Assembly: GCF_003334335.1 (NCBI RefSeq)
Contig: NZ_QOWQ01000212.1
DNA from: Escherichia coli
Lineage (GTDB): Bacteria > Pseudomonadota > Gammaproteobacteria > Enterobacterales > Enterobacteriaceae
Strand: one strand, 5' to 3'
DNA length: 345 bases
In this document: in pieces, positions 1 through 345 of the stretch
How positions within the stretch are numbered: the first letter of the stretch is position 1
How the letters are laid out: each line of letters opens with the position of its first letter
Translations under genes and position numbers: made by a program
Notes under the pieces: generated by a model
Databases searched by the model: none
What the model saw: the letters and a program-made list of their open reading frames with translations, nothing else
What the model was told of the DNA's origin: nothing

Positions 1-24
1 TGAGCTCAGCCAGTCGTACTCGTT

Positions 25-65
25 TTCCGGGTGACGGAACATCAGTTCAGGGTGACGCTCATCAG
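25..65. repeat. Tandem imperfect direct repeat, two adjacent ~20/21-bp units, spanning the yeeT stop codon
   Basis: Seen in sequence: plus 25..45 ttccgggtgacggaacatcag and plus 46..65 ttcagggtgacgctcatcag are adjacent; about 17 of 21 positions match, sharing TTC-GGGTGACG-CATCAG. On the minus strand, unit A (65..46) encodes the yeeT C-terminus ...LMSVTLN and ends in the TGA stop; unit B (45..25) follows directly. Biological meaning unknown. Confidence 0.5.
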
Positions 66-263
66 CCGGACATACGGACCAAAACTGTCCTTACGGCGTT
101 CTGCAAACACGGCCAGCACACCGGGAATATCCTGCACTTCACGACCGGTATACGCTTCAGCACTGCCGTGCCAGCGGTATTTGCCGGTACAGAACGGAAA
201 AAGACGGGATGCCGGATGCTGACGGTGAATACGCATGGCTTCGCCACGGGTGATGATTTTCAT
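42..263 (-). CDS. yeeT: DUF987 family small protein (YeeT/YpjJ/YkfH family), function unknown; complete 73-aa ORF
   Basis: Seen in sequence: ATG at 263..261, TGA stop at 44..42, translation MKIITRGEAMRIHRQHPASRLFPFCTGKYRWHGSAEAYTGREVQDIPGVLAVFAERRKDSFGPYVRLMSVTLN. An AGAGG Shine-Dalgarno lies 8-9 nt upstream. Established knowledge, from memory and not verified: this is near-identical to E. coli K-12 YeeT (CP4-44 prophage), with perhaps one or two substitutions; paralogs ypjJ and ykfH exist, so the exact symbol is less certain than the family. The protein is basic (about 12 K/R against 6 D/E). The antisense and alternate-frame ORFs over this interval have no such support. Confidence 0.85.
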   Translation of the reverse strand: MKIITRGEAMRIHRQHPASRLFPFCTGKYRWHGSAEAYTGREVQDIPGVLAVFAERRKDSFGPYVRLMSVTLN

Positions 264-271
264 AGTGGGAT

Positions 272-277
272 ACCTCT
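272..277 (-). promoter_or_regulatory. Shine-Dalgarno / ribosome-binding site for the DUF987 (yeeT-like) gene
   Basis: Seen in sequence: minus strand reads ...ttcAGAGGTatcccactATG, a purine-rich AGAGG(T) core 8-9 nt upstream of the ATG at 263..261, which is canonical spacing. Confidence 0.55.
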
Positions 278-305
278 GAAGACAGAAGATAAAAGTGAAA
301 ACAGG

Positions 306-321
306 TGTGATGTGGTTGTGA
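306..321. repeat. Short direct repeat TGTGA-N6-TGTGA (11-bp periodicity) in the RadC-like/yeeT spacer
   Basis: Seen in sequence: TGTGA at 306..310 and again at 317..321, separated by tgtggt, which is itself TGTGA-like. Sits directly 3' of the RadC-like stop (326..328). Could be a chance GT-rich tract. Confidence 0.3.
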
Positions 322-325
322 CGGG

Positions 326-345
326 TTAAAGCAGACCATGTTCGG
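326..345 (-). CDS. 3' end (last 5 codons plus TAA stop) of a RadC-like JAB-domain protein gene (yeeS/yfjY/ykfG-like); 5' part lies beyond the window
   Basis: Seen in sequence: minus-strand frame offset from yeeT reads gaa cat ggt ctg ctt taa, i.e. ...E-H-G-L-L-stop, with TAA at 328..326. Established knowledge: RadC-family proteins end in a ...FAE(R/H)G(L/W)(L/I) motif, and a RadC-like gene sits immediately upstream of the DUF987 gene in CP4-44, CP4-57 and CP4-6. Only six codons are visible, so the call rests mainly on synteny and this short motif. Confidence 0.45.

Follow-up and report, generated by a model that had tools for sequence, protein, structure and literature searches.

Deletion scars that retain pseudogene remnants are common in cryptic prophages and islands. 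The closest known counterpart of the locus analyzed here is the CP4-44 yeeT–cbeA spacer of Escherichia coli K-12. Two other kinds of system resemble it in part: slipped-strand tandem duplications and short tandem repeats, and translationally coupled gene pairs with a UGAUG overlap. The published literature on yeeT/yeeU/yeeS and DUF987 yielded nothing on the yeeT–YeeU interval or on either of the two scars described below.

The window, i.e. the whole 345-nt stretch of E. coli DNA that was analyzed (assembly GCF_003334335.1, contig NZ_QOWQ01000212.1), represents the same island family and the same interval as the CP4-44 spacer. In both, a gene that is intact in some copies is present as a fragment in others, with collinear flanks. 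The two differ in what is retained: the window type drops the 5′ 177 codons of the gene and keeps the 3′ 37, whereas the K-12 type keeps the 5′ tip only, and the breakpoint of the window type lies exactly on the yeeT stop codon. As in slipped-strand duplications, two similar stretches of about 20 nt are adjacent in the window; unlike such duplications, the two units differ in ancestry, show no copy-number polymorphism and fall below the thresholds of a repeat finder. As in UGAUG coupled pairs, the yeeT stop codon and the ATG of a downstream remnant overlap by one base (TGATG), and the ATG lies in a predicted stem that could be opened by ribosomes terminating on yeeT. In contrast to those pairs, the ATG was made by the junction and the downstream open reading frame (ORF) shows no coding constraint; the stop/start overlap therefore looks accidental, rather than an evolved coupling device.

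The comparisons reported here make it very likely that the apparent tandem repeat at the 3′ end of yeeT is a seam left behind by an old loss of about 550 bp, and that nothing was duplicated.

Results

Gene content of the window

E. coli chromosomal loci such as L001 match the window at 100% identity. The genes of the window are on the minus strand (Table 1). The right-hand end matches an annotated yeeS/JAB domain-containing protein. The identification of the central gene as yeeT/DUF987, made in an earlier note from the sequence alone, is correct according to the RefSeq annotation and Pfam: its product gives a full-length match to PF06174 (DUF987; E 1.7e-40, residues 1–65, model positions 1–65 of 65). 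The name yeeT is used for the DUF987 ORF in some records.

Table 1. Coordinates of features in the 345-nt window.
Feature	Position	Strand	Description
yeeS / RadC-like JAB-domain gene, 3′ end	326..345	-	Stop TAA at 328..326; RefSeq CDS 2826..3302 in the 100%-identical L001 equals window 326 onward
yeeS–yeeT intergenic spacer, 62 nt	264..325	-	Gap between the annotated CDSs of L001
yeeT-family gene (DUF987), 73 aa	42..263	-	ORF; stop TGA at 44..42; RefSeq WP_000692345.1, DUF987 domain-containing protein
Unit 2	46..65	-	yeeT codons Leu67–Leu72 and two bases of Asn73; CTGATGAGCGTCACCCTGAA on the minus strand; from translation
Unit 1, probable chimera	25..45	-	45..42 (C + TGA) from yeeT; 41..25 (TGTTCCGTCACCCGGAA) from codons 178–183 of the deleted 214-codon gene
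Probable deletion junction	41..42	.	546–550 bp missing relative to full-length loci
Remnant ORF, first 14 of 37 codons	1..42	-	MFRHPENEYDWLSS...GLRAG; read from the L001 sequence; ATG at 42..40
Three lineage-specific substitutions	29..38	-	38 A>T, 31 A>C, 29 T>C (minus strand)
Predicted mRNA-strand hairpin	26..70	-	Arms 70..53 and 44..26, loop 52..45; predicted fold

Read on the plus strand, positions 25–45 (TTCCGGGTGACGGAACATCAG) and 46–65 (TTCAGGGTGACGCTCATCAG) can be aligned over 21 columns, of which 17 match, with a single 1-nt gap; the two adjacent units alike at about 17 of 21 positions, on which the earlier note was based, are thus present in a gapped alignment. Ungapped similarity, as detected with a generic repeat finder, is confined to 25–36 and 46–57 (11/12, spacing 21), and this program returned no tandem array. 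The coordinates of the units were right, but their contents need correction. Unit 2, said to encode the last residues of the protein together with the stop, holds Leu-Met-Ser-Val-Thr-Leu and two Asn bases without a stop codon. Unit 1, said to begin exactly at the stop, does hold it, followed by 17 downstream bases, but starts one base earlier, at C45. Each unit is a near-palindrome (TGATG...CGTCA).

Probable origin of unit 1 in a deleted gene

In L001, the yeeT stop codon is followed by a 162-nt spacer and the gene for a YeeU-family antitoxin. A BLAST search with this spacer against 5,426 complete E. coli genomes returned many matches that place it, minus its first four bases, inside an annotated 645-bp CDS, with homology beginning at query position 5. 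The CDS is labeled ‘DUF8835 domain-containing protein’, ‘antitoxin of toxin-antitoxin stability system’ or ‘hypothetical protein’. The intact gene, of 214 codons, is located between DUF987 and the YeeU-family antitoxin in L003 (1469-2113), L004 (1469-2113) and L014 (138-782). The order in these three loci is antirestriction, RadC/JAB, DUF987, 214-codon gene, YeeU antitoxin and CbtA toxin; the intact gene occupies the position of the window junction, and both flanks are collinear with the window locus.

The similarity to the 645-bp CDS covers window positions 41..1 and a further 72 nt; on the side of the CDS it takes in the final 36.7 codons, the stop codon and the 3′ flank. Full-length loci L003 and L004 carry TTGTACCGTCAACTGGAAAACGAG where the window has TGTTCCGTCACCCGGAA (41..25). 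The full-length protein ends in ...AFWLYRQLENEYDWLTSDAAVDEALLINEYTFTEAGLRAG, and the window locus reads MFRHPENEYDWLSSDAAVDEVLLINEYTFTEAGLRAG from the ATG that overlaps the yeeT stop codon. The bases missing from the window correspond to L003 1451..2000 (550 bp; 546 bp relative to L004) and comprise a 14–18 nt spacer, codons 1–177 and the first base of Leu178. The junction created an in-frame ATG (42..40), whose A is the last base of the yeeT TGA and whose TG comes from the Leu178 codon, TTG. The conserved WLYRQLE motif of the family sits at the breakpoint. A comparison with L003 and L004 revealed no shared bases at the two breakpoints, and a microhomology-mediated deletion was rejected on this ground. 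Copies without the deletion lose similarity exactly at window 41/42, the last base of the stop codon (whole-window hits cover 42–345).

The two units are not descended from one ancestor: 17 of the 21 nt of unit 1 belong to the other gene and unit 2 is yeeT coding sequence. The imperfect repeat proposed in the earlier note is real as a similarity of sequence, but it is not a duplication. The idea of a slippage or duplication footprint is contradicted by the homology of unit 1 to codons 178–183, which continues through the stop codon and the 3′ flank. The alternative offered there, a recombination junction between island copies, holds insofar as a rearrangement junction is found at 41/42; it is, however, the endpoint of a deletion and not a crossover between paralogues.

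These comparisons support an ancestral order of yeeS, yeeT, the 214-codon gene, a YeeU-family antitoxin and a CbtA-family toxin, which many E. coli islands still have. In the lineage of the window, one deletion of about 550 bp would have brought the TG of Leu178 directly behind the yeeT stop codon. The likeness of CTGA plus TGTTCCGTCACCCGGAA to CTGATGAGCGTCACCCTGAA 20 nt upstream has three reasons. First, the junction recreates the CTGATG of the yeeT Leu-Met codons, with CTGA being yeeT's own bases. Second, C, GTCA, C and GAA were by chance common to the yeeT end and the internal segment of the gene before the deletion; when the pre-deletion bases are restored, the best alignment already has 16 matches in 21 columns. 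Third, three substitutions in the unconstrained remnant, which would be later than the deletion, add a net single match. The junction may have had a multi-step origin. It is an ordinary gene-decay scar.

The family of the 214-codon gene comprises 1,650 homologues, mostly of 214 aa, in Enterobacteriaceae and Alphaproteobacteria. The protein has no match in the copies of Pfam and NCBIfam used, and matches only families of unknown function in PHROGs. RefSeq names the family ‘DUF8835’ or ‘antitoxin of toxin-antitoxin stability system’, where ‘antitoxin’ is a putative designation. Within the gene in L003, two similar segments lie about 90 nt apart (about 1907–1935, ACCGTCACCCAGAACAGTCCGACTGG, and 2001–2030, ACCGTCAACTGGAAAACGAGTACGACTGG). 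The first of these also resembles the yeeT end (CGTCACCCTGAAC) and is a possible donor of the CACCC bases of unit 1.

A second scar in the same interval

The K-12-type yeeT–cbeA spacer of 73 nt (L002 2428-2500; also L018 85-155) consists of the first ~9 codons of the gene (MSRIIATT, ATGAGCAGAATTATCGCCACTACCG) fused to its 3′ flank, and represents a second, independent deletion of the 214-codon gene. At least two independent losses of the gene have therefore occurred in E. coli islands, where it would seem to be dispensable. In the K-12 spacer, CTGATGAGC repeats the yeeT CTGATGAGC 33 nt upstream, and is another look-alike repeat. Near-identical E. coli yeeT–yeeU sequences were also found on short, low-coverage contigs of a Mesorhizobium caraganae assembly (L016, a 464-bp contig) and of a Lachnospiraceae MAG (L018); both almost certainly reflect contamination during assembly or binning.

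The C-terminus of yeeT

Full-length, window-type and K-12-type loci, as well as E. albertii, share an identical ...LMSVTLN-stop end of yeeT. The K-12 ykfH product ends in LMSITLN and a 70%-identical K. oxytoca homologue in GNVTLN, each followed by a short spacer and an antitoxin gene. Every locus type carries the sequence of unit 2, as do the K-12 paralogues. Since the VTLN-stop is unchanged in loci without unit 1, no duplication created the C-terminus or the stop codon, as had been considered in the earlier note; the C-terminus is older than the junction and unaltered by the deletion. When one genome of each species was scanned for relatives of YeeT, four loci were recovered, two of them probably E. 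coli contamination; these suffice to show that the C-terminus is conserved, but are too few for a phylogeny. K-12 ypjJ (L020 1378-1616) has a frameshift and an early TGA (…CTTGACTGA), and the ancestral CTGATGAGTATCACCCTGAACTGA end persists just downstream, out of frame.

Distribution and variants of the junction

A 60-nt probe centered on the junction is present, with constant length, in 3,064 of the 5,426 complete E. coli genomes; elsewhere the match extends up to probe position 30, which corresponds to the final base of the stop codon. Copies with remnants 85–95% identical to that of the window, and 85–100% identical to one another, have an identical junction, which points to a junction shared by descent from a single event. 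Among the 3,064 junction-bearing genomes there is no variation in unit copy number and no allele that gains or loses a unit. The comparison of homologous loci for indel variation, suggested in the earlier note as a check on duplication, thus showed neither gain nor loss of a unit; where unit 1 is lacking, the stop codon is followed by unrelated sequence.

The sole length variant found in unit 1 is a rare allele that is 6 nt shorter (four records). It derives from the window type, because the lineage-specific bases are retained. In this allele (L013 around 400–420, window-equivalent 25–41), 1 + 5 nt are absent and the remnant reads MSVTREYDQM..., echoing the MSVT of yeeT; the units become an ungapped 15/20 match and the hairpin still folds, at -20.4 kcal/mol. 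In L009 (around 900, window-equivalent 43), the yeeT stop is changed from TGA to TAA (CTAATG), such that the stop and the overlapping ATG are kept and one hairpin pair is broken.

Decay of the remnant

The remnant ORF runs 72 nt past the left edge of the window, to a total of 37 codons. Over its last 33 codons in the fetched loci (five distinct remnant sequences), pN/pS is 0.83 and variable sites are distributed 6/9/5 over the three codon positions. The corresponding values for yeeT are 0.09 and 4/5/28, i.e. purifying selection. These values, only indicative because of the small sample, point together with the replacement of conserved motif residues to a loss of coding constraint, and to a remnant that evolves neutrally as a decaying pseudogene fragment. 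Many frameshifted, truncated or extended versions of the remnant are found in public proteomes. In L005 (1-1500) and L009 (1-900), IS elements (IS21-like ISEc12; IS66) truncate yeeT just upstream of the junction, and these loci keep the remnant, annotated as a 45-aa hypothetical protein.

Substitutions next to the junction

The three lineage-specific substitutions correspond to Y179F, Q181H and L182P in the old reading frame. Of the deletion-type copies examined, all carry them apart from L005, which is IS-truncated and has one extra change. They break the family-conserved motif WLY[RCQS][QR]L. When a hybrid construct carrying the three bases was searched with BLAST against the 5,426 E. coli genomes, the closest full-length allele had four mismatches in 106 nt; the substituted motif is absent at the homologous position from the 120 full-length proteins listed, and a protein search with the remnant returned short fragments only. 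Because the changes fall in a conserved motif, we infer that inactivation of the gene preceded them; no full-length parent allele with these bases was found among the genomes searched. All three lie beside the junction in a stretch of 10 nt; two reproduce unit 2 bases and two strengthen the predicted hairpin. On either measure, repeat likeness or hairpin, about 3–4% of random substitution triples do as well, and the substitutions may include a small templated or selected component.

A predicted hairpin across the junction

The predicted hairpin at 70..26 encloses the yeeT stop codon and the AUG of the remnant, and can form because both units are near-palindromes. Its predicted energy is -21.5 kcal/mol (z -4.2), and none of 200 shuffles is as stable. 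The same sequence with pre-deletion bases folds at -17.1 kcal/mol, and of the three substitutions, two contribute a further 2.2 kcal/mol apiece, a stabilization equaled by only 3.8% of random triples. Among real 57-nt windows from the islands, 3.9% fold at least as well as -21.5 kcal/mol and 14% reach -17.1 kcal/mol.

It was considered whether the hairpin is a selected RNA element that tunes translational coupling from yeeT to the toxin-antitoxin genes, or transcript stability, with the post-deletion substitutions fixed because they stabilize it; such a coupling or insulating element would have reset expression of the downstream CbtA/YeeU-type module after loss of the 214-codon gene. The stability relative to shuffles and the gain from the two substitutions would fit this proposal, as would three G-U pairs, which make the fold specific to the mRNA strand, and the near-invariance of the junction-proximal ~30 nt among diverged copies. 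That invariance, however, also follows from descent from a single founder with recombination further downstream. The fold, strong against shuffles, is ordinary against real island sequence, and compensatory changes are missing from the natural variants: pairing persists as a wobble in two, the change falls in the loop in one, and one pair is lost in another. An equivalent hairpin is absent from full-length and K-12-type loci, and the element is hence not conserved in the operon. Rfam 15 gave no match at the gathering score, with two chance-level hits far below it, neither at the junction. We therefore set the hairpin aside as a functional element: it is probably incidental, and selection for it is judged improbable.

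The hairpin does not resemble an intrinsic terminator, being followed by AAAACGAG with no U-tract. Scans of the gene strand for terminators and for promoter-like sites were empty, and the operator, promoter and terminator readings were rejected.

Possible templated copying at the junction

A different explanation for the clustered substitutions is that the deletion was accompanied by a short templated patch, in which C31 and C29 (GTCACCC) were copied from a nearby template, such that part of the likeness is true copying. Candidate templates are the adjacent yeeT end (GTCACCCTGAA) and a site about 90 nt upstream in the deleted gene (ACCGTCACCCAGAAC, L003). Two of the three changes do give the exact unit 2 bases, no full-length allele has them, and an equal rise in repeat similarity is seen for only about 3% of random triples. 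This value (p ~0.03) is, however, post hoc; the tract would be at most 5 nt long, between unconverted mismatches (G28 versus T; T38, which fits neither template), and the units become less similar through the third substitution. Ordinary point mutation suffices to explain the changes, given that the remnant is unconstrained, and a templated patch is very doubtful.

Repeat statistics and slippage

Tandem Repeats Finder returned no rows for the window, even at a minimum score of 30. In a banded self-alignment (offsets 12–40) the window scores 20, which is reached by 8 of 400 dinucleotide-preserving shuffles (2%), and three other sites score at least 20 in about 24 kb of real DNA from related islands. 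The similarity of the units weakly exceeds chance, and a repeat at this score is unremarkable for a genome scan. The earlier note had proposed a repeat finder and shuffled sequences as a joint check on the repeat; the finder is negative and 2% of the shuffles equal the score, i.e. the repeat is detected neither above threshold nor clearly beyond chance.

The agreement of adjacent units at 17 of 21 positions, with only 2% of shuffles reaching the score, speaks in favor of a true tandem duplication, by slippage of the last ~20 nt of yeeT, that possibly created the present stop codon. Against it, unit 1 and everything beyond are homologous to an internal part of another gene, which is already counted as refuting slippage; the VTLN-stop is present in loci without unit 1, including the Klebsiella homologue; copy number is constant across thousands of genomes; and the repeat finder is negative. 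Slippage is thus extremely unlikely.

A direct-repeat operator for a regulator of the downstream toxin-antitoxin promoter, suggested by a spacing of ~20–21 bp (two helical turns) upstream of the antitoxin gene, has practically no probability, as one unit is part of the yeeT CDS and the other consists of pseudogene DNA, full-length, K-12-type, ykfH and ypjJ loci have the same toxin-antitoxin module but lack the pair, and no promoter-like site was found on the gene strand.

Discussion

The deletion seam at the end of yeeT is an example of a deletion junction that mimics a tandem repeat. Its recognition removes a false lead: there is no slippage hotspot at this site and no remodelled yeeT C-terminus. 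If the hairpin were, against expectation, under selection, it could explain the presence of the deletion allele in more than half of E. coli genomes.

The significance of the finding is mostly limited to annotation. What is treated in most E. coli as a 162-nt ‘intergenic’ spacer between yeeT and the YeeU-family antitoxin gene is the 3′ remnant of the 214-codon gene, and the short ‘hypothetical proteins’ (37–67 aa) annotated in this spacer are pseudogene fragments.
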